This document shows positions 8,770 through 45,106 of a DNA stretch of 64,000 nt, in pieces. This DNA is from Pseudomonadota bacterium. Its GTDB lineage: Bacteria > Pseudomonadota > Alphaproteobacteria > UBA2136 > JAPKEQ01. The notes under the pieces are model-generated. The model was not told the DNA's origin. It searched no databases and saw only the letters and a program-made list of their open reading frames with translations. Location: NCBI GenBank assembly GCA_036141575.1, contig JAYZXF010000017.1:78077-142076 (forward strand), given 5' to 3'. The position numbers and the translations under genes were made by a program. Each line of letters begins with the position of its first letter. Positions within the stretch are counted from its first letter, which is position 1.

Positions 8770-9582
8770 ATGAGACACACAGTATGGATTGCGTCGTTGG
8801 CGCTTTTGTGTGCAGTAAATGCGCAAGCTTCAGAAGGAATTGCAAGGCAAATTCAGTCTCTTAAAACAGCAATGGATGGGTTTGCAGCAACTGCAAGAGC
8901 GCAAATTGCGTCCAATACAGCGAGTATTACTGAAAACGTAAGAATTATTGACTCTTTTGAGACCTGTGCTGAAAGCGGGATGATGTATGCCCCTGATGAT
9001 GTGACAGCGAATGCAGATGGCTGTAAGCGCGTCACCTCAACACAAGCGCTCAATGAAATTGATGTGTCAAGCCAGCTTGTGGCAACAGGCCGGTGGCTAC
9101 ACCCTTATAACTTTAGTGAGCATTCATCAAATGGGTCTCCATCAAAACGTGGCCGTTCTTATGCGCAGATTTATCGTATTAATGATCCTGATAATTATAA
9201 CAACTACCTGATTTCTGGTAATCTTTTTGGTGGTGGTAGTCGTTCTCATGATGAGGGTCAGTTCAGTTGTTGGAATGCTAATACTTATGTAAAGATTGGT
9301 AGTGGTTGGGTTTCTACAAACGGTGATTCTATTAAAATTGAACAGCTTGCCAATGTGTCTAAAACGCGTGTGGCAGGCCATGTTTATAATGGCACATTCC
9401 AAAACCAAATTGCGATTGTAAAGCGTACATCTCATAGCTGTTATAATAACGGAGGGGATTTAAATATGGGAATGAAGGTTAATTACATTACGTATCACAA
9501 TGGTATGAATGCACGTGCATCTTATCATGATAGTGACTCGCGAGCTTCAACACTGCGTGTGACAAACATTATTGGTTTTTAA
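8770..9582 (+). CDS. secreted protein, member A of the 'EG-ARQ' family
   Basis: Signal peptide, then 'SEGIARQIQSLKTAMDGF', then the two-Cys loop 'FETCAESGMMYAPDD...DGC'. Paralog of 12161-13015. Confidence 0.7.
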   Translation: MRHTVWIASLALLCAVNAQASEGIARQIQSLKTAMDGFAATARAQIASNTASITENVRIIDSFETCAESGMMYAPDDVTANADGCKRVTSTQALNEIDVSSQLVATGRWLHPYNFSEHSSNGSPSKRGRSYAQIYRINDPDNYNNYLISGNLFGGGSRSHDEGQFSCWNANTYVKIGSGWVSTNGDSIKIEQLANVSKTRVAGHVYNGTFQNQIAIVKRTSHSCYNNGGDLNMGMKVNYITYHNGMNARASYHDSDSRASTLRVTNIIGF

Positions 9583-9633
9583 ATTAATGGAAGTTCCTAT
9601 AAATAAGCATGAAATGGGAGGTTTATAGATTTC

Positions 9634-10206
9634 ATGAGTAAAGTATTTAAAGGGAGTGCAGCTGTTGGCGCTTTAATGGCGGCGACAAGTGCTGCTGCAC
9701 ATGACCACGACTTTCCGAACTTGAATTACGATGCCAATGCACCTGTGCCTGATGGCATGAGCGAGGTGTGCTCTCCAAGTGATCTGGAATACTTGCAGTG
9801 GCAAGCCAATGATTTTGTGGTTGATAATCAAGTTCAGTTTCAGCCTAAAGATGATGCGGCACAGGGCTATATGCAAGCTTATGCCGAGCTCCATGAAGGG
9901 GACAATGCATTTGAGGCTTATAAAGGTTATAGTGATCGTGCTTTTGAGCACTATAAAGAGTTTGATAATGTTGCTAAGCAGGTTGAGCGCGGCATGGTCA
10001 GCTATGATGAAGTAGATCAACAGATTCTTGGTCGTATTAATGAGCTTGGTCACCTTGAGCAGTTTTATATTAATTCTATTCAGGCTGAGAAGATTGCAGC
10101 AAACTTTGAAATGCAGTACGGCGAGGGGTCTTTTGCCCGTTACGCTGGTATGCAGGTTGAAGTGGAGCTTGGAGAGCTCAACTGCGATATTGAAGCTGAG
10201 CGCTAA
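9634..10206 (+). CDS. hypothetical secreted protein
   Basis: N-terminal signal-like 'AAVGALMAATSAAA'. 190 aa. Confidence 0.5.
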   Translation: MSKVFKGSAAVGALMAATSAAAHDHDFPNLNYDANAPVPDGMSEVCSPSDLEYLQWQANDFVVDNQVQFQPKDDAAQGYMQAYAELHEGDNAFEAYKGYSDRAFEHYKEFDNVAKQVERGMVSYDEVDQQILGRINELGHLEQFYINSIQAEKIAANFEMQYGEGSFARYAGMQVEVELGELNCDIEAER

Positions 10207-10942: not shown

Positions 10943-11998
10943 CTAGAGGAAACGCACGTCGTTGCGATGGAAGTAACGGGTTAGACCGAGACTTGCGCCC
11001 ATCCCAACAAGGAAAAGCATGACCAGAGCCCATGTTGGTGGGTTGATCTGGGATTTGAGGTAGGCAAACTGTTTCATCTGTGGGCGTACAAAGTGTGCGT
11101 CCACCTCTTCGGAGATGGCGTGCACAATTGCATGCGGGTCAGAAATAGTGCCAATGTTTTGAAGTTCATCACGCAGATACACTGCCATTTCTTCGTTGCC
11201 GTATCCGCCAGCCCAAGTGAGCACATGGGCCCAATTGATAGTGTCGGTTGCGTCAACACTCAGAATAACCACCACATCATTCTTGTTGAGACCATCCCAT
11301 GCGGCTTCAACTTTGAAGACATATTCACGGGATTTCTCTGTGGTGATGATCAGGTTCACGTTGGCCTGTTTACTTGGGCCAAGGTGAATCAGTTCCTGAT
11401 TCAGCAGATCTTGCCAGTGGTCAGCATCTTTCAAGCTGAAGCCTGAAGTCAGCACCCGGTGTGCACGGTAGTAGTCGAACACGCGTGGGTACTCAGGCAC
11501 GTCGGCCAGATGCTCATAGTCCAGCATTTGCGTTTTGTAGAGGCTGCCGTTGGCGGCCTGTACGTAGTTATCATAGGTGTGCTCAGTTGCAGCAGGTTCA
11601 CCAATAACCACTTCCGTGAAACGGGGTGGCTCTTTGGTTCCCTGACGGTTGATACGCCGAATGTTGAAGTCGCCAACATTGGTGTAAACACGCCAGTCAT
11701 AGTCGTGAGAGTGCTCATAGCATGTTTGGCAGGTCTGTTTACCGTCTTTGTCGGTGACACAATTGCATTGGTAGCTGTGTTCGCAGGAAACGCGAACACG
11801 CTTTTTGTCTGCAATTGAGCCGTTCCAAATTTCGGTATCAGCCATCATGCCTTTTTCGGTCAGCTTGTAGCCGCCAAAAACCAGCGCTGTCACGAGAACG
11901 AGCTGCATGAGGATTTCTTGCCAGTTCAGGTCATACTTCAATGCTTTTGCAATGAGAGGTGTGAGAAGGGGCAAGAGAAGAAGCCATGCAAGATACAT
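10943..11998 (-). CDS. hypothetical membrane protein with a Cys-rich extracytoplasmic segment
   Basis: N-terminal and C-terminal hydrophobic helices. Cys-rich stretch 'SCEHSYQCNCVTDKDGKQTCQTCYEH'. Confidence 0.55.
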   Translation of the reverse strand: MYLAWLLLLPLLTPLIAKALKYDLNWQEILMQLVLVTALVFGGYKLTEKGMMADTEIWNGSIADKKRVRVSCEHSYQCNCVTDKDGKQTCQTCYEHSHDYDWRVYTNVGDFNIRRINRQGTKEPPRFTEVVIGEPAATEHTYDNYVQAANGSLYKTQMLDYEHLADVPEYPRVFDYYRAHRVLTSGFSLKDADHWQDLLNQELIHLGPSKQANVNLIITTEKSREYVFKVEAAWDGLNKNDVVVILSVDATDTINWAHVLTWAGGYGNEEMAVYLRDELQNIGTISDPHAIVHAISEEVDAHFVRPQMKQFAYLKSQINPPTWALVMLFLVGMGASLGLTRYFHRNDVRFL

Positions 11999-12160
11999 GT
12001 GTTTTCTCCTTAAAATGTACGAAAGATTACAGTAGTGATGAAATTGTGATCATCCCTTTAATGAAATTCAAGGTTTTGGGTGTTTTTTTTAGGAGATATG
12101 AGCTTGTGTGTTAACCTATAAGAGAAAGCAGGGTTATAAAAAAGAGGGGTCCCTTACAAA

Positions 12161-13015
12161 GTGAGGCATATGCTTAAAGTATCAGCATTAACTGCTGTGT
12201 GTGTGATTGGAATCGTGAATTATGTGCAAGCGAGTGAAGGAATTGCTCGTCAAGTACAAGCCTTAAAGTCCTCTATGGATAGTTTTGCTGCGACTGCTCG
12301 TGCTCAGCTTGCTGCTCAGGCGGTAAGCATTACAGAGAATGTACGTATGATTGACGCTTTTAAAACCTGTGCAGATAAAAACATGCTGTATACGCCTGAA
12401 AATCAGGCGGCAGATGTGGATGGCTGTTCTGCGATGTCTGGCTCTGGGGAAGTAAATGAAATTGATATGGCAACAGAGGTTGTGCCAACAAACCAATATT
12501 TTAATGTGGAACATGGCAGGGAGCAAACTGGAGGCGGTGGAGTAACTCGTGGCTCTCCTGCACGTATCTATCAGATTAATGACTCTGGAAATTATCAAAC
12601 ATATCAAGTTGTCGGTAATATCCGAGGCTGGGGTTGGCAATGGGATGATGAAGATCATGCTTATGACCATTGTTATGCTTATCAGCCTTATGTGAAAATT
12701 GGCGGGAGATGGCATGTCTCTGACTCTGATACTGTGACAATCCGTACTGTTGCAAACCAAAATAAAACCATTCTAAATGGCCGTATGGTGAATGGAAGTT
12801 TTGATAAAAGAATAGCTGTTGCTAAAGGAACAGCTTTCAGATGTGGTCGTCGTGGGGATACAAATGCTTTATATCAGATTTTTAATGATATGCGTAAGAG
12901 CCATGTGACTTGGTCTGATGCTTTAGCTTCTGGTCAAAGGGCTTGTTCTCATCATGACCCTCTTAATTGCAGAAATAGTGCATCGCTTGGTATACACTAT
13001 ATTGTTGGCTATTAA
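12161..13015 (+). CDS. secreted protein, member B of the 'EG-ARQ' family
   Basis: Signal peptide, then 'SEGIARQVQALKSSMDSF', then 'FKTCADKNMLYTPEN...DGC'. Shares 'IY(R/Q)IND..NY' and 'YVKIG' blocks with member A. Confidence 0.7.
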   Translation: MRHMLKVSALTAVCVIGIVNYVQASEGIARQVQALKSSMDSFAATARAQLAAQAVSITENVRMIDAFKTCADKNMLYTPENQAADVDGCSAMSGSGEVNEIDMATEVVPTNQYFNVEHGREQTGGGGVTRGSPARIYQINDSGNYQTYQVVGNIRGWGWQWDDEDHAYDHCYAYQPYVKIGGRWHVSDSDTVTIRTVANQNKTILNGRMVNGSFDKRIAVAKGTAFRCGRRGDTNALYQIFNDMRKSHVTWSDALASGQRACSHHDPLNCRNSASLGIHYIVGY

Positions 13016-13114
13016 GTTAAAAATTAAAAAAGAACTACCCAATTTTAAAAAACGCCTTTAGGTTAGAGATATCTTAAATCTTCTTTAATGTTTCCTAACT
13101 GACGAGGCGTTATC

Positions 13115-14146
13115 ATGCGCTATACAGTTCCTGCTGGGCGCAATGAAGCGCCCTATGCCCTATGGCATGAAAAAAGCATACAGGCGCGAAGCTGGTATTT
13201 AGCTTTAGGTATGATGTATCCCGTGATTATATGTATTGCCCTTGGGCTGCATGGCGGGGTAGGAACCTTTATGAGTGCCATTTTCTACGCAGTCTTGCTT
13301 TTTGGTGTTTCTCGCTTTCAAGCCTATAAAACGGTGCGCTCAGCACCTGAAGAATTTGCGCGTAAGGCTATTCCTGAAACCTCACCTCAATATCGTCAGG
13401 CTCTCCTTATGATTGAGGAGCTTTGCCAGCGTGCAGGTGTGGATTGGAGGCCTCAGCTTATTGTGTTTGAAAGTGAAGGCTTTGACGGTTTTGCAAGCCA
13501 TCCCCCTGGACGGGACCCCTATATTATCCTGAGTACAGGTGCTTTTCTTTATGGGAAGAGAAGTGTACGTGCTGTGATCGCTCATGAGCTGTCTCATATG
13601 CTGCACGGGGATATGACCCTTGTTGAGAGGGCAACCATCCTGCATATGGTGACAATGGCTATGCTTGCTCTTATTTTGTCTGTTCCAATGGCTATGGCTG
13701 GTGGAGAGTCTGCTGACAGTGTTTTCTTTCTTGTGTTTTTATTGGGGTTTACCTTCATCTATTTACGTGGATTGAAGATTGCGCTCAATACGCACTCACG
13801 CTACCGAGAGTATTTGGCTGATGGTGGTGCTGCCGCTTTAATTGGCTGGGAAAACCGTATGGATATGGCGGTTGCACTGCACTGGACTTTTGTTGCCTTT
13901 AAAGAGCTTCTGAAAAAGAAGGTGAGGCAAGGGCAGCTCTACAAAGATTTCCGTCACCCTCAAACTGGGGCACCCCCTAGAGAAGGATGGCTTGAAGACA
14001 TGCAACAAAAAGCGCTGGATGCGATTGATGAAATGGAGGAAACCTCTTCCATTATGAATACGCACCCAACCAATAAAGAGCGCTATGCTGCGCTCGATAT
14101 TACCGAAGACGAGCTGAAGCAAGCTCTTGAGGATCATGCGCTATAA
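13115..14146 (+). CDS. M48-family zinc metalloprotease (HtpX-like), membrane-associated
   Basis: HExxH motif 'VIAHELSHMLHGD' plus multiple TM segments. Confidence 0.75.
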   Translation: MRYTVPAGRNEAPYALWHEKSIQARSWYLALGMMYPVIICIALGLHGGVGTFMSAIFYAVLLFGVSRFQAYKTVRSAPEEFARKAIPETSPQYRQALLMIEELCQRAGVDWRPQLIVFESEGFDGFASHPPGRDPYIILSTGAFLYGKRSVRAVIAHELSHMLHGDMTLVERATILHMVTMAMLALILSVPMAMAGGESADSVFFLVFLLGFTFIYLRGLKIALNTHSRYREYLADGGAAALIGWENRMDMAVALHWTFVAFKELLKKKVRQGQLYKDFRHPQTGAPPREGWLEDMQQKALDAIDEMEETSSIMNTHPTNKERYAALDITEDELKQALEDHAL

Positions 14147-36529: not shown

Positions 36530-38041
36530 CTATCTTTCTATAGCTTGTTCTTGGTCTTCTAACCAATCTGAAACCCGTACAGAACCATCAGGATAAGCTT
36601 CCGCCATTGGAGTATGATAAAAGTAAACAGTCTCTTCTGGCGGTGCACCTTCTAAGCTTTCAAGCTGGCTTGTATCAAAGTCAAGGCATCCAGTAATATC
36701 TTGGGCAACACCTTTCAAATCACGAATATTGGTTTTGCCAGCATAGTAAGCGCCCTTGACTACCTGTGGTCCTCCTTCTAGAGACTCAAGTGGGGTACAA
36801 GAGCAATCAAAAGAGCCCTCAACAATTTCTGGGCAGCCTTTTAAGGTTGTAAGCTGTGTTTCTGACAGGTTCAAACCTTTATTGCGGACATCGCGCATAT
36901 CTGGTAGCTGCATAATCTGCTGGCCTTTGAGGTCAATCACATCTGGCACATGAATTGTACCGTCTTCATGCTCCGTGTAAGGCATCTGGAAGAAATCTAA
37001 AAACTCTTCAGCTGTACAAGCACCATGGCGAATATAAGAAGGGATGAGCTTTGCTTTTTCACCTGTGACTGGTGTGAGCGTTCCTTCATCATTTAGCTTA
37101 AACTCGCTGATTCCATCTGTTTGTATGTTATTGATCTTTTTAAAGCTGCCTGTTAGGCCTGCATTATGTTCTGCACAAAAAGCATCCATGGCTTTACAGA
37201 AGTACATATCACTAATGCCGTAATCCTTATCAGCCAGTAGAGCAACTTGGCCTTCATGGTTCATAAAAGGTTTCAGCAGGATGCGAGACCTGGGGTTATG
37301 AAGGTCAGGGTCGCTCTTTGTGGTTAGGTAAGCGATCATGCTGCCTTCTTCTGCGAGGGGAATCAGTTTATCTGCGTAACCATCTTCTGAGCGTTCATCA
37401 ATGCAGCTTGTCCAACGGCGTGCTGTGCTGGCGCGGGCGATGTCACCCGGGTTACGGCTTAAAACCACCATACCATCTTTTTGTAGACCGCCTGTCGCTT
37501 TAGACCAGTCTTTTAGGAGGTCATCTTCACCAAGGCGTCTGAGAAGTTTGCCAACTTTGGTATTGTTCTTACCGCCGTCATCTGTGGCAGTGCGCTCTTC
37601 CATGTTTGTTTCGTAGCCGTGCTCAGCAAGGGCGTCTGTTACTTTACGAGATGTGCGTGTCATGAAAGGTGAATCTTCCACCTCAAACTCAAAGTAAAGG
37701 CGGTCATTGCCTTCACCAAAGATTTTCTCAAGGTGAGGGGCGCGTGACATGGGCATATTGCGCACATGATTCAGCGTTTTAGATTCAATATTTTCTGGAA
37801 GGTCTGTTATTTCTTGCTGAATAGCCTCAGTGTCAAGTTCTGCCATAGATGTGAGGGCTTGAACCGAAGGAAGCTTGCCTCTGCTTTCTAAAAAAGCATC
37901 CGCATACGCGAGGCTGTAATCCATGAGGGCGTCTTTTTTCTCAGGAAAGTGAGCGCATGCCTCATCTACGCGGCGTTCAATTTCATCCGCGACCTCAAAA
38001 CCAAGAGCCGTAACCTCTCTGTTTTCTAAGGGTTTTTGCAT
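36530..38041 (-). CDS. large hypothetical protein with C-terminal Cys-containing leucine-rich-type repeats
   Basis: 503 aa. C-terminal repeats 'LKGCPEIVEGSFDCSCTPLESLEGGPQVVKG..' and 'LKGVAQDITGCLDFDTSQLESLEGAP'. Confidence 0.55.
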   Translation of the reverse strand: MQKPLENREVTALGFEVADEIERRVDEACAHFPEKKDALMDYSLAYADAFLESRGKLPSVQALTSMAELDTEAIQQEITDLPENIESKTLNHVRNMPMSRAPHLEKIFGEGNDRLYFEFEVEDSPFMTRTSRKVTDALAEHGYETNMEERTATDDGGKNNTKVGKLLRRLGEDDLLKDWSKATGGLQKDGMVVLSRNPGDIARASTARRWTSCIDERSEDGYADKLIPLAEEGSMIAYLTTKSDPDLHNPRSRILLKPFMNHEGQVALLADKDYGISDMYFCKAMDAFCAEHNAGLTGSFKKINNIQTDGISEFKLNDEGTLTPVTGEKAKLIPSYIRHGACTAEEFLDFFQMPYTEHEDGTIHVPDVIDLKGQQIMQLPDMRDVRNKGLNLSETQLTTLKGCPEIVEGSFDCSCTPLESLEGGPQVVKGAYYAGKTNIRDLKGVAQDITGCLDFDTSQLESLEGAPPEETVYFYHTPMAEAYPDGSVRVSDWLEDQEQAIER

Positions 38042-38188
38042 GGCCCGTTTGTCCTTTTCCTCGGTTCCATAAGTAAATAAGAAGGAAAACTGCCTATTTC
38101 AAGGGCAAAGCAATAAAAACTGCACTTGAAAAAATGGCGGATAACTCCCATAATATAAGTTAATAAATAACTCAAGAGGGATGAGAAA

Positions 38189-38656
38189 TTGGCTCATATG
38201 GATAAGGGCGCTATCGACAGACGCGGACTAGATGAAAGTACAGTGAACAAGCTCACTGAGGCTTACCGTATGGGTTGGCTCCATAATGTCCTGTCTCGTA
38301 TTACTCCTCTTACAATGCGTCGTCGTGATGATTACCTTAACATGGCAGACCTGTTTATTGATACACCTGAAGCAGCTCACAAGCTGTTAGATCGCTTTGA
38401 TGCAGACCTAGAAATGTTCTGCTCAGTGGCAGAAATTCAAGTAACAGAGCACATGACAAGCAAAACGGTTTCAGATGAGCTGAAAGCGCACGTTGAACTC
38501 TACAACGACATTGCTGGTGTTCTTTACGGTAAGTTTAAAGGTGACGTTGAAAAGCGTGATCCTATTCAAAGTCTCGCAATGACGCCGATTACAACGGATA
38601 GCACAAACCCGTTTATTGCAGAATTCATGAAAGAGAAATTCCCGAAAAAAAATTAA
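38189..38656 (+). CDS. hypothetical protein
   Basis: 155-aa ORF with an RBS-like 'aagaggg' upstream. Confidence 0.45.
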   Translation: MAHMDKGAIDRRGLDESTVNKLTEAYRMGWLHNVLSRITPLTMRRRDDYLNMADLFIDTPEAAHKLLDRFDADLEMFCSVAEIQVTEHMTSKTVSDELKAHVELYNDIAGVLYGKFKGDVEKRDPIQSLAMTPITTDSTNPFIAEFMKEKFPKKN

Positions 38657-38727
38657 ACGGCGCCTTTAAGCGAAGTTTTATGGTATCTGTCTCGTGTTGT
38701 GATAATAAACTCTGCGCTCAGATTTTT

Positions 38728-38890
38728 CTTTGCTTGCTTTCCATCTTTTATTTTTCAAACATAAAGTCCAATGCAAGCTCTTGGAAAGCGTGAAGCATTC
38801 AACAGCATGGGCATTTTCAAGATAACCTTCACGGGGGCTATCATTTTACAAATTTTACATTTGAAAAATGATAGGGTGAGAGTGAAGAAG
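38728..38890. repeat. intergenic repeat element copy (module A forward segment plus an inverted hairpin at 38827-38887)
   Basis: 'ttgcttgctttccatcttttatttttcaaacataaa' matches 26830-26870. The hairpin 'cttcacgggggctatcattttacaaattttacatttgaaaaatgatagggtgagagtgaag' is the reverse-orientation equivalent of 58160-58220. Confidence 0.7.
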
Positions 38891-38895
38891 AATAA

Positions 38896-40164
38896 CTATC
38901 TAAAATATCTACCCGCATGCAGTGTGAGGCCAACACCGACACTCCCAAACGCATCACCTGTTACCACATGTGCATGTGGAAAAGGCTCAAGCAGGGCTGC
39001 ACGAATCATTGGGAGTTTTGTTGAGCCACCAGTGAGGAATACGCTTGAAATTTGTTCGGCTGTCACGCCTGCATCATCAAGAGTTTCCTGTACTGTACGC
39101 TGCAATGAGTCACACGAATCAGACAAGCTCGGGCGAAGGTGATTGTTGTTTGTTACAGGAACACTTAGGCCTTTTTCAACAAAGTTCATATCAAGAATAT
39201 TCTCATCAGATGCAGACAGGGCAATCTTGGTTTCTTCAACCTTCATGGCCAGCGTGTGGCCGCTTTCATCCTCAAGAACGTTCAAATAGCGTTCAAGCTT
39301 GTCAGGGTCTAATGCATGGTTGAGTGTGTCTTCAACAAGGCGTACTGTCTTTTGGTTATACAGCGTGTGAATTTTTGGCCATGTCGCCAGCGTAAAGAAC
39401 AGCCATGGCGCAATTTCAATATCTTTATCAGAAAACGGTGCACGCATAAGGCCTTTATGACCAAGCTCAGGCATTGCACACATCAGGCTGAGAGCTTTAT
39501 CAAAGTCTGTACCACCAATATGTACACCGTGGTTAGAAAGAATGTCTTCTGAGCGGTTCTCTTTGTGTTTATGCTCTGGTGACAGGCGAATCACTGTAAA
39601 GTCAGACGTACCACCGCCAAGGTCAATAATCAGAGCGAGTTCTTCTTTCTTGAGCGTATCTTCGTAAGTATAAGCAGCGGCCAGAGGCTCAGGCAGGAAG
39701 GTTACATCTTTAAAGCCTGTGCTTTTTACAATCTCTTCCAGCATGTTTTGCGCCTCAGCGTCAGCCTTAGCGTCCCCATCAATAAAGAAGACCGGTCGAC
39801 CAATAGTTGCACGCGTGAGCTCTTCACCTGCGGTGGTGTCTACATGCTTTTTAATGTCGGCAATAAAGCTCCCAAGAATATCTGTAAAGGCAACTTGGCG
39901 GTTTCCAATACGTGTGCTTTCACGGGCAAGGTCTGTCCCTAGAATACTTTTAAGAGCGCGCATAAAGCGTCCATCATCCCCGCGTGTGTAGGCTTTTACA
40001 GCTGATCGACCAAAGCTTCTTGTGCTGTCATCATCAATAAAAATGGCACTCGGAATAGTGTTTTCATCGCCTTCCAAGTTACAAAGTGTTGCTGTGCCGC
40101 CTGTGAATAGGCCTGCTGTTGAATTGGATGTGCCGAAATCAATACCGCAAACTGGGGACGTCAT
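38896..40164 (-). CDS. Hsp70-family ATPase (YegD-like: actin-like ATPase domain only)
   Basis: 'CGIDFGTSNSTAGL', 'IIDLGGGTSDFTVI' and 'VFLTGGSTKLP' are the Hsp70 phosphate-1, phosphate-2 and adenosine motifs. 422 aa with no substrate-binding domain. Confidence 0.8.
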   Translation of the reverse strand: MTSPVCGIDFGTSNSTAGLFTGGTATLCNLEGDENTIPSAIFIDDDSTRSFGRSAVKAYTRGDDGRFMRALKSILGTDLARESTRIGNRQVAFTDILGSFIADIKKHVDTTAGEELTRATIGRPVFFIDGDAKADAEAQNMLEEIVKSTGFKDVTFLPEPLAAAYTYEDTLKKEELALIIDLGGGTSDFTVIRLSPEHKHKENRSEDILSNHGVHIGGTDFDKALSLMCAMPELGHKGLMRAPFSDKDIEIAPWLFFTLATWPKIHTLYNQKTVRLVEDTLNHALDPDKLERYLNVLEDESGHTLAMKVEETKIALSASDENILDMNFVEKGLSVPVTNNNHLRPSLSDSCDSLQRTVQETLDDAGVTAEQISSVFLTGGSTKLPMIRAALLEPFPHAHVVTGDAFGSVGVGLTLHAGRYFR

Positions 40165-40527
40165 TTGATAAGCCTTTCTTTGGAAAGCATGGAAACTATC
40201 AAAGTTTCAGGCGTTTGTCATGAGAAAGTTCTTAAAAACGGTGAAGACTTCTTCTTTGAAGTGCCCAAGCACCCTGCCAACAAAATGTTTGCAGATCGCT
40301 TGCAGCACCTTGGCTTTGAGCGTTCCCCTCTGATTGCTCATGACGATTGTGATCGGTTCTATATGCCTGAAGGCACAGACTTGGCGCAAGTCACGCTGGA
40401 ATATCAGGAATACTTCAAAGCTGGCGAAGCGCCGACACCAGCCATTGTTCCACTGGGGCACTTGTCGCCCACGGTACAGGATAAGTCTCGTGGTATGGAT
40501 GTCGAAGACTGGCCGCCTGAGAATTGA
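40165..40527 (+). CDS. hypothetical protein
   Basis: 120-aa ORF divergent from the Hsp70-like gene. Terminator at 40549-40578. Confidence 0.4.
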   Translation: MISLSLESMETIKVSGVCHEKVLKNGEDFFFEVPKHPANKMFADRLQHLGFERSPLIAHDDCDRFYMPEGTDLAQVTLEYQEYFKAGEAPTPAIVPLGHLSPTVQDKSRGMDVEDWPPEN

Positions 40528-40624
40528 TTTGAAAACGAAAATAAAGGCACCCCGTCAGAAACGGGGTGTCTTTATTTTTGTGGGGGACTCATAAACCTTT
40601 AAGGTTGTAAGGGAGGTTCCTGTA

Positions 40625-41143
40625 ATGGGAGAAACTTTAGGCTATATATCACTTATCCTTTATGTAGTCGCATTATTATTTCATAAGCCACGCCATAGCT
40701 TTATTTGCTTTATTATCGCGAATCTCTTCTTTATTGCACAATGTATTGTTTCAGAAATGTATGTTGCAGTTATGGGACCTATTGGGCTAACAGCTCTTAC
40801 TGTCTTTATTTTAAATGTTAAGAAGAAAAATTGGACTGCTTATGTAAAAGGTTATGCAACTTTTACTGTATGTGTTGGGGTGTATTTTGCGTCTAGTGTA
40901 AGTGAGTATATTGTTGTAAGTGCTATGTGTATAGATGCTCTATCTCGCCTAGGTAGAGACCATTTTTACCTATTTAGAACCTTGTCTTCTTTAGGAAATA
41001 TACTATGGTTTACATCTTTTTACATAGAGGGAGTAACTTCTATTATGTTGATGAGCGCTTTGATGGTTTCTTTAAATGTGATTTATATGGTCAGACATGC
41101 GTTGAGAGATGAGGTGCTCTTTAAGCAAAAGGTAAATGAATAA
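40625..41143 (+). CDS. hypothetical membrane protein
   Basis: Several hydrophobic helices and AT-rich codon usage. Confidence 0.4.
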   Translation: MGETLGYISLILYVVALLFHKPRHSFICFIIANLFFIAQCIVSEMYVAVMGPIGLTALTVFILNVKKKNWTAYVKGYATFTVCVGVYFASSVSEYIVVSAMCIDALSRLGRDHFYLFRTLSSLGNILWFTSFYIEGVTSIMLMSALMVSLNVIYMVRHALRDEVLFKQKVNE

Positions 41144-41268: not shown

Positions 41269-42108
41269 ATGAGGTTATTTGCAATTGTATGTATGTGTTG
41301 CGCACTGTTTGTCAGTGTGGCAGCCGTTTCTCAAACACGTGCAGGTGAAGGACTTTCACGCCAACTTCAATCTGTAAAATCAATGCTTGAGAGTTTCCGT
41401 AGCCATATAGATGGTGAAATCGCTCGTGTGGATAGTGAAATTAATACAGTGGATAGCAGAGTAGATGCTGCAAATACTAGAATGGATACCATGGACGGTC
41501 GTATGGATGGTATAGACACTCAGATTGGTGGCCTAAACTCGAGTATTAATTCACACGATAACCGTATTACAGCCCTAGAAAATGGGGAAACAGGTGTGCA
41601 AGTTTACAGAAACTGTGCACAACGTAATGTGACATGGGGCAGTGGAAATTGCCGAGGTACGCAGGGGCCCATTCCTCATGGCACAAGTATAACGGTTAGA
41701 GACACCGTTCAAGGTGATATTTGTACAAATAGATATCAATATGTTGGCTATGCTGTGTATAGTTGTAATGATGGTGTGGTAACGCGTAACGGGCAAGCTT
41801 GTCAGCGAACAGATTTCTACAATGAAAATCTATGTGAATCTGGCAGTGGTGGCGATAGCTATGCAAACTGTCAAGGTACAACAAGGACATGGTCAGAAAC
41901 GTATAATGGTCTAACTTCAACCTGTTCTGGATCAATTGGTTCTGTGCCACATGGTACAACCGCTACAGCAACAGACCCTAGAACTGGTTGTGACCGTCGA
42001 GACTTCACAGGTGGATCATCGACTTGGCTATGTGATAATGGTACTCTCAGAAGACAAGGTACTGCAACATGTAGAACCTGGGGCAGCTGGGGTAGCGACT
42101 GTCGATAA
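41269..42108 (+). CDS. secreted protein, member E of the 'EG-ARQ' family, with two Cys-rich ~65-aa modules
   Basis: Signal peptide, 'GEGLSRQLQSVKSMLESF', a coiled coil, then modules 'C..RNVTWGSGNC.G..G...HG....D..C......G.....C.NG.......C' twice. Confidence 0.7.
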   Translation: MRLFAIVCMCCALFVSVAAVSQTRAGEGLSRQLQSVKSMLESFRSHIDGEIARVDSEINTVDSRVDAANTRMDTMDGRMDGIDTQIGGLNSSINSHDNRITALENGETGVQVYRNCAQRNVTWGSGNCRGTQGPIPHGTSITVRDTVQGDICTNRYQYVGYAVYSCNDGVVTRNGQACQRTDFYNENLCESGSGGDSYANCQGTTRTWSETYNGLTSTCSGSIGSVPHGTTATATDPRTGCDRRDFTGGSSTWLCDNGTLRRQGTATCRTWGSWGSDCR

Positions 42109-42288
42109 TTGAATAAATGAAAGCAGAAAAGGAGGGCACATGCCCTCCTTTTTGCAACAGGGGATATATTTATTTTTCTTGAAGTATCAATGTATTGCAA
42201 TTTTTACTCACCTATTTGTCAGGGATATGTTTATTTAAAGTTGTGGTTATATATATAAATAAAATGTGATTTATAAAAGGGGTTTAAA

Positions 42289-43374
42289 ATGAGAGCTTTT
42301 CCGATAGTAATGATTTTATCCTGTTTAGTTTTACTAACAGGCGTAGCTGGTGCGCAGAGCACGCGCTCTGGTGAAGGTATTGCAAGGCAGTTAATGTCTG
42401 TTAAAAGTATGATTGAAAATTTTGCTGATAACATCCGCACACGTGTGCAGACCGTTGAAAATGAAATGGATGCGGTAGAAACACGTATGGATACAGTGGA
42501 AGCTGATGTTGCAAGCGTACTTGCAACCGTTGCAACACATGAAACACGGTTGAGCTCGCATGATTCATCTCTATCTGGCCATGGTCGCCGTATTCGAGCA
42601 CTCGAAGAGCGCGAGCCAACAGGTGGTGGAGGTAGTACAGCACCAACACCAAGTGCGTGTAACGGTAGAAACATGTCATGGGGAGGGGGATGTAGTGCTT
42701 ATGTACAATCTCTACCTGATGGGGGTGCTGTCGTTCTGAGAGATCAAGTTGCTGGTGATGTATGTACAAATAGACAGCAGTATGTTGGTCAAGTTCGTGT
42801 GGCTTGTAACAATGGTCAAATTTCTACAAAGAACGCCTCTTGTGAGCTGAGAAACGTTTATAACGCAACTCAGTGTAGTGGTGGCACAACACCAACACCG
42901 AAGAAGAGATGTGCAGCAAAAGATGTGAGCTGGAAGAACAATGCTGGTACAGTCACATGTCGTGGTAGAATTGTTGCAGCTGATCATGATTCAACACGTC
43001 GTGTAACATTTGATAACAACAATACAAAACCTGGTGGAAAACGTATTACTGGTGCAGCAAACTTTATTTGTGACAACGGTGTGTTCAAACGTACATCTAA
43101 GAACTGTAAAGAAACTGTTAACCCTGAGCCTCCTAAGCCTTGTGCAGGCAAGTCTGTGAGTTGGACTAGTAATGGTGTTACATGTCGAGGAACTGTTTCG
43201 AATACGCCACATGGTTTAACTTCAAGTGTAACAGACCCTAACCGAACACGAGAGTGTGAGAACATTATAGATACAACAGGTAGCGCAAGCTTCAGGTGTA
43301 CAAATGGATCGTTCAAGAAGGTCTCTGGCTCTTGCAGGCAGGTACGGAGTCGTCGAACAGGTGACTGTCGATAA
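42289..43374 (+). CDS. secreted protein, member F of the 'EG-ARQ' family, with three Cys-rich modules
   Basis: Signal peptide, 'GEGIARQLMSVKSMIENF', then three modules ('CNGRNMSWGGGC...', 'CAAKDVSWKNNAGTVTC...', 'CAGKSVSWTSNGVTC...'). Confidence 0.7.
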   Translation: MRAFPIVMILSCLVLLTGVAGAQSTRSGEGIARQLMSVKSMIENFADNIRTRVQTVENEMDAVETRMDTVEADVASVLATVATHETRLSSHDSSLSGHGRRIRALEEREPTGGGGSTAPTPSACNGRNMSWGGGCSAYVQSLPDGGAVVLRDQVAGDVCTNRQQYVGQVRVACNNGQISTKNASCELRNVYNATQCSGGTTPTPKKRCAAKDVSWKNNAGTVTCRGRIVAADHDSTRRVTFDNNNTKPGGKRITGAANFICDNGVFKRTSKNCKETVNPEPPKPCAGKSVSWTSNGVTCRGTVSNTPHGLTSSVTDPNRTRECENIIDTTGSASFRCTNGSFKKVSGSCRQVRSRRTGDCR

Positions 43375-43384
43375 GGACTCTATA

Positions 43385-43416
43385 AAAGAAAGCGGCGCAA
43401 GAGCGCCGCTTTTTTG
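43385..43416. terminator. bidirectional terminator 'aaagcggcgcaagagcgccgctttttt'
   Basis: Perfect 8-bp stem between convergent family genes. Confidence 0.75.
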
Positions 43417-43434
43417 TAACTCGAACGGCTCGCT

Positions 43435-43992
43435 TTATTTACATGGATCTGATGAGTAAGAACAAACTGGATTAGAAATAACAAAGTCACCATTACGACA
43501 AGTTACTGTAGCAGAGCCTGAAATATGGTTACCACAACGTGGGCGTGGGTGGGTAACTGTTGCAGTATCACCTTCATTGGCACCCCATGCAGTACTTGTA
43601 CATGTTGGATTACCATAGGCACCAGTCCATTGCACAGGTCTGCTTGTACAGCCAGACACTGTTCCAGAGCTGCCTGTCATATCATCGTGGGAAACGCAGC
43701 CTCGTCCATCTGCATCTGGGTGTGTTGGCCAGTGAATGCTTGGATCACCAGATGTATTGATACATGCTGTTCGTTGGTTCTCTCGTGTTTCAAGATTTGT
43801 TACACTGTTTTCAACGTTTGTCATGCGGGGTCTCATATCATTTGCAAATGCTTCCATCATATTTTTAAGAGATGTAAGCTGTCTGCTGATACCTTCACTT
43901 GTACGTGTCTGTGCATCAGAGTTAGAAATAACGATGAGGGATGCTGTTGTGAGAATTGCCGTAAAAATGAGGCAAGATTTTTTCAAATTCAT
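43435..43992 (-). CDS. secreted protein, member G of the 'EG-ARQ' family
   Basis: Signal peptide, 'SEGISRQLTSLKNMMEAF', 'TACINTSGDPSIHWPTHPDADGRGC', then one Cys-rich module. Confidence 0.65.
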   Translation of the reverse strand: MNLKKSCLIFTAILTTASLIVISNSDAQTRTSEGISRQLTSLKNMMEAFANDMRPRMTNVENSVTNLETRENQRTACINTSGDPSIHWPTHPDADGRGCVSHDDMTGSSGTVSGCTSRPVQWTGAYGNPTCTSTAWGANEGDTATVTHPRPRCGNHISGSATVTCRNGDFVISNPVCSYSSDPCK

Positions 43993-44104
43993 AATCTTTA
44001 TCCTTTACTTTTACCGGTTGATGCTACGCCTGTGTATGGGGGTGGTCAAATTAAAAAATGAAAAAGACCTAGAAAAATCTAGGCCTTATCACGTTTAAGT
44101 TGTT

Positions 44105-45106
44105 TTATTGAGGTTCACCATTATGCTCTTTAGAGAGTGGGTATTTTCCTTTTTTGTCTGGAATAGAGCCGTGGACAAGAATACCGTTTGCATAGTAAGT
44201 GTGGTCACCATCTAGCATAAGGTTGTAGAGGCGGCGGTCTTCTTCTTCCTGTGGGACAATCATGATGGATTCAATAAGCTGACGCTTGCCTTGTGCCATA
44301 ATGAGTGTTTGGCCAATTTCAAGCTGACCAATGTTACCAGAAAGTTGGTCGTAAGCTTCTTTCTCAGCCATATCTGGGTTAAGGGCCTTCCAGCCGTCTG
44401 TTGTCATAAGAGGGTGGTTATCTGTTGTAAAGGCAGTTTCACCGTTAATCTCAATAAGGTGCTGGTTTTTACCTTTGCGCAGAAGAGGGCGGTCAAGGTC
44501 TAGCACGGTGTTAATTGCACCGTCACGGCCCATCAGCTTATCACCAATTTTAACTTTATGAATTTCAAGGTCACTACCATCCGCCATAAGTACTTTTGTT
44601 TCAGCCGTAAAGCATGAGCCGCGGCAAACTGCTGCACAATTTTCCATACTATTAGGCGTTAGGTTTGTATTACAGCGGCAGGCACATCTCCACCCCACCC
44701 AAACTTGGTCGCTTGGGCATGTAGGAGGCGTGTAGGTGCCACCACCTGTTGGGCCTTCAATATCTGTATGTGTTACACAGTTATTGCTATCAGCATCTGG
44801 ATGGTTTGGCCAATACAGGCTTGTTGTTGATCTGTTATGGCAGAACGTTTGCCTATTAATAACTGTCTGGAGGTCTGAAATATCCGTTTGTGCTGTTGAG
44901 AGCTGTGTTTCTAGAGTGCTAATTCTAGAGCTCATGCCAGTAGACATGCTTTCCATCATGTTTTTAAGGGAGAGAACTTGCCTTGAAAGTGCTTCACCCG
45001 CACTTGTTTGTGCCCATACATTGGCAGCTAAAATGATTGTGCAAAGAGAGAGAAAGATTGCAATGGATTTAAGTATTTTACCCTTGAAAAACATAGTGGC
45101 CACCAT
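44105..45106 (-). CDS. secreted protein, member H of the 'EG-ARQ' family, with a C-terminal Hint (Hedgehog/intein-like, BIL-type) domain
   Basis: Signal peptide, 'GEALSRQVLSLKNMMESM', 'QTFCHNRSTTSLYWPNHPDADSNNC'. Hint blocks 'CFTAETKVLMADGS', 'TTDNHPLMT' and 'YNLMLDGDHTYYANGILVHGS'. Confidence 0.7.
   Translation of the reverse strand: MVATMFFKGKILKSIAIFLSLCTIILAANVWAQTSAGEALSRQVLSLKNMMESMSTGMSSRISTLETQLSTAQTDISDLQTVINRQTFCHNRSTTSLYWPNHPDADSNNCVTHTDIEGPTGGGTYTPPTCPSDQVWVGWRCACRCNTNLTPNSMENCAAVCRGSCFTAETKVLMADGSDLEIHKVKIGDKLMGRDGAINTVLDLDRPLLRKGKNQHLIEINGETAFTTDNHPLMTTDGWKALNPDMAEKEAYDQLSGNIGQLEIGQTLIMAQGKRQLIESIMIVPQEEEDRRLYNLMLDGDHTYYANGILVHGSIPDKKGKYPLSKEHNGEPQ

Follow-up and report, generated by a model that had tools for sequence, protein, structure and literature searches.

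The 64-kilobase (kb) window analysed here, a stretch of contig JAYZXF010000017.1, encodes three neighbouring proteins with signal peptides, E, F and G, whose C-terminal parts are built from two, three and one copies of a Cys-rich module. The module recurs in many other bacterial proteins and is matched by none of the curated libraries with which we compared it. It appears to represent an uncurated bacterial family with a predicted fold of known type, and the form found in the window looks like a lineage-specific variant with three putative disulfides, carried on a family of stalk proteins. With moderate confidence, we read E, F and G as exported, oligomeric, disulfide-stapled recognition heads on a stalk; we are far more certain that the domain is real, and less certain that it has a binding role. 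The genes and modules are listed here by window position, as are all coordinates below; module classes and the SEG-motif are described further on.

41269-42108, plus strand: gene E, 279 amino acids (aa), ending in ...GSDCR; an open reading frame (ORF) behind a GAGG ribosome-binding site, with signal peptide, SEG-motif, coiled-coil stalk and two modules.
41269-41607, plus strand: signal peptide and heptad coiled-coil stalk of E (aa 1-113), recognised by its heptad register; its database matches are weak and of coiled-coil type only.
41608-41838, plus strand: module E1 (aa 114-190), six Cys, first-position class; found by alignment and by an independent hidden Markov model (HMM, 45.5 bits), and 61% identical to module 1 of the related protein P0006.
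41863-42105, plus strand: module E2 (aa 199-279), six Cys, terminal class, ending in C-R; 39.8 bits, 61% identity to P0006 module 4.
42289-43374, plus strand: gene F, 361 aa, ending in ...TGDCR; an ORF with signal peptide, SEG-motif, coiled-coil stalk and three modules.
42652-42879, plus strand: module F1 (aa 122-197), six Cys, first-position class; alignment, 40.5 bits.
42904-43134, plus strand: module F2 (aa 206-282), four Cys (C3 and C6 missing), internal class; 48.7 bits, 36-39% identity to the internal modules of P0006.
43135-43371, plus strand: module F3 (aa 283-361), six Cys, terminal class, ending in C-R; 61.3 bits, five strands in an AlphaFold model.
43435-43992, minus strand: gene G, 185 aa, ending in ...SDPCK; an ORF with signal peptide, SEG-motif, short coiled coil, Cys neck loop and one module.
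43438-43656, minus strand: module G1 (aa 113-185), six Cys, terminal class, ending in C-K; alignment, 35.8 bits.

When extracted and aligned with MAFFT, the six copies fall into register with their cysteines in shared columns, as a preliminary description of this DNA had proposed. Invariant columns hold C1, the Trp near the module start that it had pointed out, C2, a Gly, C4 and the Gly of C-x-[ND]-G; all six copies have C5 as well. Pairwise, the copies are 12-44% identical, with BLASTP E-values from 1e-22 to 0.3. Copy numbers of two, three and one are confirmed by HMM scan and alignment, and a six-frame HMM scan of the whole 64 kb detects no copy beyond these six. The three ORFs exist as described, with G on the minus strand, a detail that had been left unstated. 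Other particulars had to be revised. The start motif, given as C-x3-[VM]-[ST]-W, is C-x4-[VMR]-[STQ]-W; the spacing from Trp to C2 ranges over 3-10 residues instead of 3-6; and the full module measures ~73-81 aa, not ~65. The expected five to six conserved Cys amount to six in five of the copies, and F2 has four. A 'PHG' stretch occurs in E1, E2 and F3 only, its place being taken by PDG, DHD or NEG in the others. The sixth Cys lies 6-11 residues past C5; E, F and G each have it as their last residue but one. The modules of F are separated by Pro/Thr-rich linkers.

A syntenic locus (L001) occurs in a second metagenome-assembled genome (MAG), GCA_035092205.1, and comparison with it establishes that these genes are under purifying selection. 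The ratio of nonsynonymous to synonymous substitution rates (dN/dS) relative to the L001 orthologs, from a genome with ~86% protein identity, is 0.16 for E, 0.15 for F and 0.14 for G, and it stays between 0.09 and 0.17 across stalks, modules and a Hint domain encoded by a further gene of the cluster, H. Such low values indicate working genes. Module copy number is constant between the two sequenced relatives. In a word-indexed protein search, F retrieved only its own cluster (including MEC9292353.1, from a 'Pseudomonadota bacterium' MAG) and one 86% ortholog, P0002, which is located in the L001 locus; P0056 is the ortholog of G. No relatives of F were found among GTDB species representatives.

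To place the module more widely, we searched the six-module profile against 1.84 billion cluster representatives. At E<=1e-3 the profile matched 236 proteins, of which 92 reach <=1e-10 and 15 reach <=1e-30; database-wide E-values fall as low as 1e-70, and up to 27 stretches match in one protein. Counted over the best 150 of the 236 matches plus additional relatives (153 proteins), there are 767 module instances; exactly four Cys occur in 502 of the 554 full-length ones, and the commonest length is 62 residues. Among 532 instances from proteins outside the E/F/G family, C3, W10, C17, G41 and C47 (numbered by alignment position) are invariant, followed by C60 (98%), G50 (94%) and G27 (82%, mostly within [HSN]-G). 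D or N occupies position 34, [ST]-A-x-[FY] positions 42-45, and W, L or F position 52. The ~62-aa core can be written as C-x6-W-x3-10-C ... [HS]G ... [DN] ... G[ST]A-x-[FY]-x-C-x-[ND]-G-x-[WLF] ... C, and the window copies conform to it at C1, W, C2, Gly, C4, the Gly of C-x-[ND]-G and C5 in six of six cases. An HMM made from the 532 outside instances alone gives the six copies 36-61 bits, and their shuffled versions (200 per copy) at most 12.

Most carriers of the module are 400-2300 aa long, have signal peptides or lipoprotein-like N-termini, and contain 3-27 tandem copies (overall range 1-27); E, F and G fit this family habit with their signal peptides and their two, three and one copies. 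Prepilin-type N-termini are recognised by motif in 24 of the 153 proteins, and Pfam/NCBIfam confirm them in P0012, P0019 and an ORF of locus L005. E, F and G have no prepilin motif G-F-[ST]-L-[IL]-E; their signal peptides are of the classical kind, with A-x-A type sites. Besides the module, carrier proteins bear RCC1 propellers, a TSP1 repeat and Hint. That prepilin-type and giant exported proteins share one module agrees with a function beyond the cytoplasmic membrane, be it binding, spacing or both. A narrower alignment search located the core module in five genome loci, all in proteobacterial MAGs (Pseudomonadota, Rickettsiales, Alphaproteobacteria, a betaproteobacterium and Acidovorax facilis). 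At one of them (L005, 2148-7080, plus strand, a Pseudomonadota MAG) three further module-bearing genes, oriented alike, come after a one-module prepilin-type gene, an arrangement that recalls the E-F-G-H cluster. P0025, P0060 and P0077 alternate the module, with a period of ~117 aa, with a Cys-containing ~56-aa unit starting ...[VI]-x-G-x-C-G-x-A-x-G-G, for which a scan of P0060 returned no Pfam model.

The preliminary description had called the module novel and without a known-family match. The latter is borne out in Pfam-A 2025, NCBIfam 2026 and the PDB sequences: Pfam-A and NCBIfam cover the module neither in the window proteins nor in array proteins made almost wholly of it. 'Novel' stands in the sense of uncurated, not of unique, as the core module is present in at least 236 other protein clusters and its predicted fold appears to be of a known class (Sushi/CCP-like; CCP, complement control protein). 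It is thus neither confined to this genome nor categorically new, and according to the available libraries and a literature search, which found nothing relevant to such a domain, it is not already described. The alternative identity of an EGF or PKD variant, raised at the same time, received no support from HMM or fold matches. Word-indexed protein searches with a 136-module alignment and with a stalk alignment returned nothing. The module was not found in viral contigs; tblastn gave no match in phage records and, in plasmid records, matches only to the RCC1 part of P0005. A phage origin was rejected, as the PHROGs matches lie in the stalk and are at coiled-coil level only. With this family, large parts of several hundred bacterial surface or pilin-like proteins that had lacked annotation are accounted for, and the analysis provides it with a sequence signature, a confident structural model and a disulfide map that can be tested.

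AlphaFold2 modelled F3 from the 136-sequence alignment with a mean predicted local distance difference test (pLDDT) of 81.4 and low confidence in the C3 loop and tail. The canonical four-Cys module of P0007, with a 78-sequence alignment, reached a pLDDT of 95.7 and a predicted template modelling score of 0.76. Five strands are common to both models (residues 6-12, 15-21, 29-34, 40/46-48/56 and 51/59-61/70) and are predicted to stack as beta hairpins in a fold of Sushi/CCP type, in which, by analogy, C1-C4 and C2-C5 are probably the core pairs. The fold comparison lists Sushi/CCP structures (complement C6, C7, SPICE, factor H, DAF, PAPP-A, VCP and C1s) together with ectodomains of class-B G protein-coupled receptors (GIPR, PTH1R, PTH2R and CRF-R1; examples are VIPR2, 2x57, and PAC1R, 7jqd) and fibronectin type I (FnI) fingers. 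A Foldseek search of the PDB gave nothing below E 0.9.

In sequence, a parallel with Sushi is seen at the C-terminus, where the module motif [FY]-x-C-x-x-G-x-[WLF]-x7-8-C parallels CysIII-x-x-G-x-W...CysIV; hhalign pairs exactly these segments with factor H CCP1 (sequence in agreement with PDB entry 3gau), at a probability of ~1%. In other features the two differ. C1-C2 spans ~13 and C2-C4 ~29 residues in the module, whereas Sushi has ~30 between Cys I and II and ~13 between II and III. The invariant Trp of the module lies between C1 and C2, that of Sushi before the last Cys (between Cys III and Cys IV); at this Sushi position, W is found in 43% of the outside instances, and the window copies have V, L, I, F, F and F. 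The module family is bacterial and, unlike Sushi, has an extra, putative C3-C6 pair in this lineage. None of E, F and G matches Sushi PF00084 at its gathering threshold. Nor do the modules qualify as HormR (PF02793), for which a Pfam match together with an N-terminal helix and six Cys paired 1-3, 2-5 and 4-6 would be expected. Fibronectin type I fingers are shorter (~45 aa), with fewer aligned residues (39-45), lower identity (9-15%) and no sequence match.

Across all instances, a Cys at C3 goes together with one after C5 in 21 of 21 cases and never occurs alone; F2 and both internal modules of P0006 lack C3 and C6 alike. This joint presence and absence suggests a C3-C6 disulfide, although the instances are phylogenetically related and the pattern is therefore not proof. 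Carriers of the six-Cys form are for the most part SEG-stalk proteins: E, F, G and their orthologs, P0006 (four modules), P0087 (one module and Hint), P0141 and P0144. Within this group, modules sort by position. A first-position class (E1, F1, P0006-1 and P0087) shares D-x-x-x-G-[DN]-[IV]-C-[TQ]-N; F2, P0006-2 and P0006-3 form an internal class with four Cys; and a terminal class ending in C-[RK] comprises E2, F3, G1, P0006-4, P0141 and P0144. Because E1 and E2 each share 61% identity with P0006-1 and P0006-4, P0006 looks like an E-type protein into which two internal modules were inserted. Its architecture directly supports the earlier proposal that copy number changes by module insertion or duplication.

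The N-terminal half of the story is a stalk shared with three further proteins, A, B and H. All six begin alike, with a signal peptide, an A-x-A type site and then SEG[IL][AS]RQ..[SA][LV]K (the SEG-motif) near the predicted mature N-terminus. A heptad coiled coil comes next in every one of them, ahead of differing C-terminal heads, and is 50-85 residues long in E, F and G; that of E and F keeps a single heptad register over ~85 residues, with hydrophobic residues at 72% of a/d positions as against 31-34% overall. The E stalk (41269-41607) and that of its L001 ortholog (8959-9819) differ in length by exactly seven residues, one heptad (a MDAMDTR-type repeat), as expected if the coiled-coil register is constrained. 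Right behind the coiled coil, G, H, both L001 Hint paralogs (H1 and H2), P0087, P0141 and P0144 have a conserved, putatively disulfide-closed neck loop C-x8-9-[IL][YH]WP-x-HP-[DESA]A[DN]-x3-C; A and B have a variant, C-x7-Y-[AT]-P...DGC, and E and F no neck. By sequence comparison (and Pfam for H), the additional features are:

8770-9582, plus strand: gene A, with signal peptide, SEGIARQ stalk start and a different ~190-aa head, without the module.
12161-13015, plus strand: gene B, a paralog of A, without the module.
43696-43764, minus strand: neck loop of G, C77-x8-IHWPTHPDAD-x3-C99.
44105-45106, minus strand: gene H, 333 aa, with signal peptide, SEG-motif, stalk, neck, a short Cys-rich stretch and a C-terminal domain of the Hint autoprocessing type.
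44777-44842, minus strand: neck loop of H, C-x9-LYWPNHPDAD-x3-C.

The ~190-aa head of A and B has no Pfam, NCBIfam-type or PHROGs match. Stalk matches in Pfam and PHROGs are weak and of coiled-coil type (phage tail adhesin, tail needle, hepatic lectin N-domain). The same plan, in which a heptad coiled coil lies between an N-terminal segment and a C-terminal head, is found in collectins, phage tail fibres and needles, and Lpp-like coiled coils. The parallel is a functional analogy only: the stalk matches are at composition level (E 1e-5 to 0.1, below cut-offs) and there is no homology of the heads. A degenerate DNA pattern for the stalk motif matched 11 sites in JGI metagenomes, all unrelated (for example glutamate-kinase-like ORFs).

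H may link the stalk proteins with protein maturation. It matches Pfam Hom_end_hint (PF05203) at 50.2 bits, above the cut-off of 32.1, and PT-HINT at 26.0 bits, just under the cut-off of 27.7; no module is detected in it by HMM. At its junction, ...CRGS|CFTAETKV, the domain starts with Cys-Phe after a small residue, with a nucleophilic Cys at position 1. H thus belongs to the Hint (Hedgehog-intein) superfamily, with putative cleavage activity. The sequence ...C-R-G-S|C-F-T precedes the Hint nucleophile in H, in both L001 Hint paralogs (11812-12786 and 12906-14087, minus strand) and in P0087. In the second L001 paralog, H2, and in P0087, the C-R of the junction is the C6 end of a first-class module that directly precedes it, and the members without Hint (E, F, G, P0006, P0141 and P0144) all end in ...C-[RK]. 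Given these matching ends, Hint self-cleavage would leave a C-terminus only two residues past the point where E, F and G stop, which suggests that maturation of the Hint paralogs yields a like product. Transfer of an activated C-terminus to another molecule is a further possibility. Compared with Hedgehog- and intein-type systems, H has only ~20 residues after Hint and no toxin or extein to release, so the relevant product would be the stalk protein at the N-terminus. H2 (12906-14087, minus strand; stalk, neck, one module and Hint) lies between H and a 109-aa gene in L001 and is absent from the window; the cluster has gained or lost paralogs between close relatives.

Taken together, these features suggest how E, F and G could work. 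The signal peptides, which lack a lipobox, point to export through Sec, and for the same lack lipoprotein anchoring was rejected. From the invariant Cys we infer that disulfides would form in the periplasm; the extracellular location and disulfide bonding assumed in the preliminary description are likewise suggested by signal peptides and Cys conservation. The coiled-coil stalk would oligomerise and present several heads together. Through the variable C2-C4 segments of the heads, probably the ligand-contact surface, E, F and G could then act as multivalent molecules akin to adhesins or lectins, or as recognition heads mounted on a spacer. This lineage would have added a third disulfide (C3 to the tail C6) in first and last modules, copy number would shift by insertion or duplication of internal four-Cys modules, and in paralogs the same stalk would carry other heads (A, B) or Hint (H). 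One N-terminal chassis with exchangeable heads, one of them Hint, would make a compact natural system for the diversification of exported recognition proteins.

Three points count against this picture of recognition heads with a Sushi-type fold. All relatives are unnamed metagenomic proteins, and no annotated homolog bears on function. The neighbourhood has no outer-membrane anchor, sorting signal or secretion-system gene, so E, F and G could stay periplasmic. Sequence links to Sushi are not significant, whether by PDB profile (the best match, factor H, at E 0.3), by PF00084 (one of 136 modules, E 0.021) or by hhalign. Against this background, the idea that the module is a true bacterial branch of Sushi/CCP-HormR, a relative or donor of the animal modules, set on an oligomeric stalk and in some paralogs (H, L001_H2 and P0087) matured by Hint two residues past C-[RK], seems to us quite unlikely. 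Were the resemblance due to common descent, it would touch on how a module class usually held to be an animal (and poxvirus) innovation arose; if it is only convergent, the module is a useful but ordinary addition to the bacterial extracellular repeats. It is very unlikely that the module is instead a diverged member of a curated domain (EGF, PKD, bacterial Ig-like or SCPU) that the HMMs missed. A Pfam scan of the 136 modules, even at E<=10, yielded only scattered weak matches, and those that might speak for such an origin, to SCPU in nine of the 136 (best E 0.01) and to Sushi and the Ephrin cysteine-rich domain in one each, were dismissed as noise. We see practically no chance that the similarity of the six segments is an effect of composition or that the ORFs are not genes. 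The sequences are of low complexity, rich in Cys, Gly, Thr, Asn and Ser, and some pairs share only 12-25% identity, but the profile search (E-values to 1e-70), the shuffle test (at most 12 bits against 36-61) and the dN/dS of orthologs in a syntenic locus, together with ribosome-binding sites and terminators in place, refute both.

Two further explanations accept the module and dispute its role. The modules could be inert, rigid, disulfide-stapled spacers that set the length of a surface fibre and bind no ligand, which we regard as unlikely. Long uniform arrays of up to 27 copies, placed in distant relatives between a pilin-like or signal-peptide N-terminus and RCC1, TSP1 or Hint, are typical of spacer repeats, and the Pro/Thr-rich linkers of F would suit a spacer too. 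In E, F and G, however, the modules form the very end of the protein, making a pure spacer less likely for these three. First, internal and terminal classes are conserved separately (61% between E and P0006), and modules and stalk have equally low dN/dS, both of which argue for position-specific roles. Alternatively, E, F and G could be architectural proteins of the periplasm, Lpp-like coiled-coil struts or tethers whose Cys modules attach, on the inner side, to the cell wall or outer membrane. The classical Sec signal peptide without lipobox, the want of a recognisable outer-membrane anchor, secretion signal or adjacent secretion genes, and a coiled coil of 50-85 residues, comparable with periplasmic spans, would all agree with this. 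Lpp has a C-terminal Lys, of which the conserved C-[RK] end is reminiscent; yet E and F end in Arg, not Lys, and the module also occurs on prepilin-type and very large exported multi-domain proteins, which are normally surface exposed. We judge the periplasmic strut distinctly unlikely, and retain recognition heads on an oligomeric stalk as the reading of E, F and G.

The four clustered genes are arranged convergently, with E and F on the plus strand and G and H on the minus strand. Plausible ribosome-binding sites precede E, F and G, and two hairpins accompany the genes:

43389-43412, no strand assigned: a GC-rich hairpin with flanking A and T runs between the convergent F and G, a likely bidirectional terminator.
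44064-44087: a second terminator-like hairpin, after H.

From these hairpins, G and H appear to be separate transcription units. The synonymous substitution rate relative to the L001 ortholog is 0.10 for the module of G (43438-43656, minus strand), far below the 0.71 of its stalk (43657-43992, minus strand), and E and F show the same trend of lower values in the modules. Possible reasons are codon constraint or a recent event of recombination or gene conversion in the part that encodes the module.

Scanned against Pfam, neighbouring genes mostly have no match and reveal no functional partner, and Rfam and tRNA scans of the window are empty. ORFs without a Pfam match occupy 36530-41143: a 503-aa ORF at 36530-38041, and others at 38189-38656, 40165-40527 and 40625-41143 (hydrophobic, membrane-like). 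An M48 peptidase gene (13115-14146) adjoins B. Housekeeping genes surround the locus, among them those for Nfu/NifU, an Hsp70-like protein, a SurA/rotamase-domain (PpiD-like) protein, TpiA and SecG.

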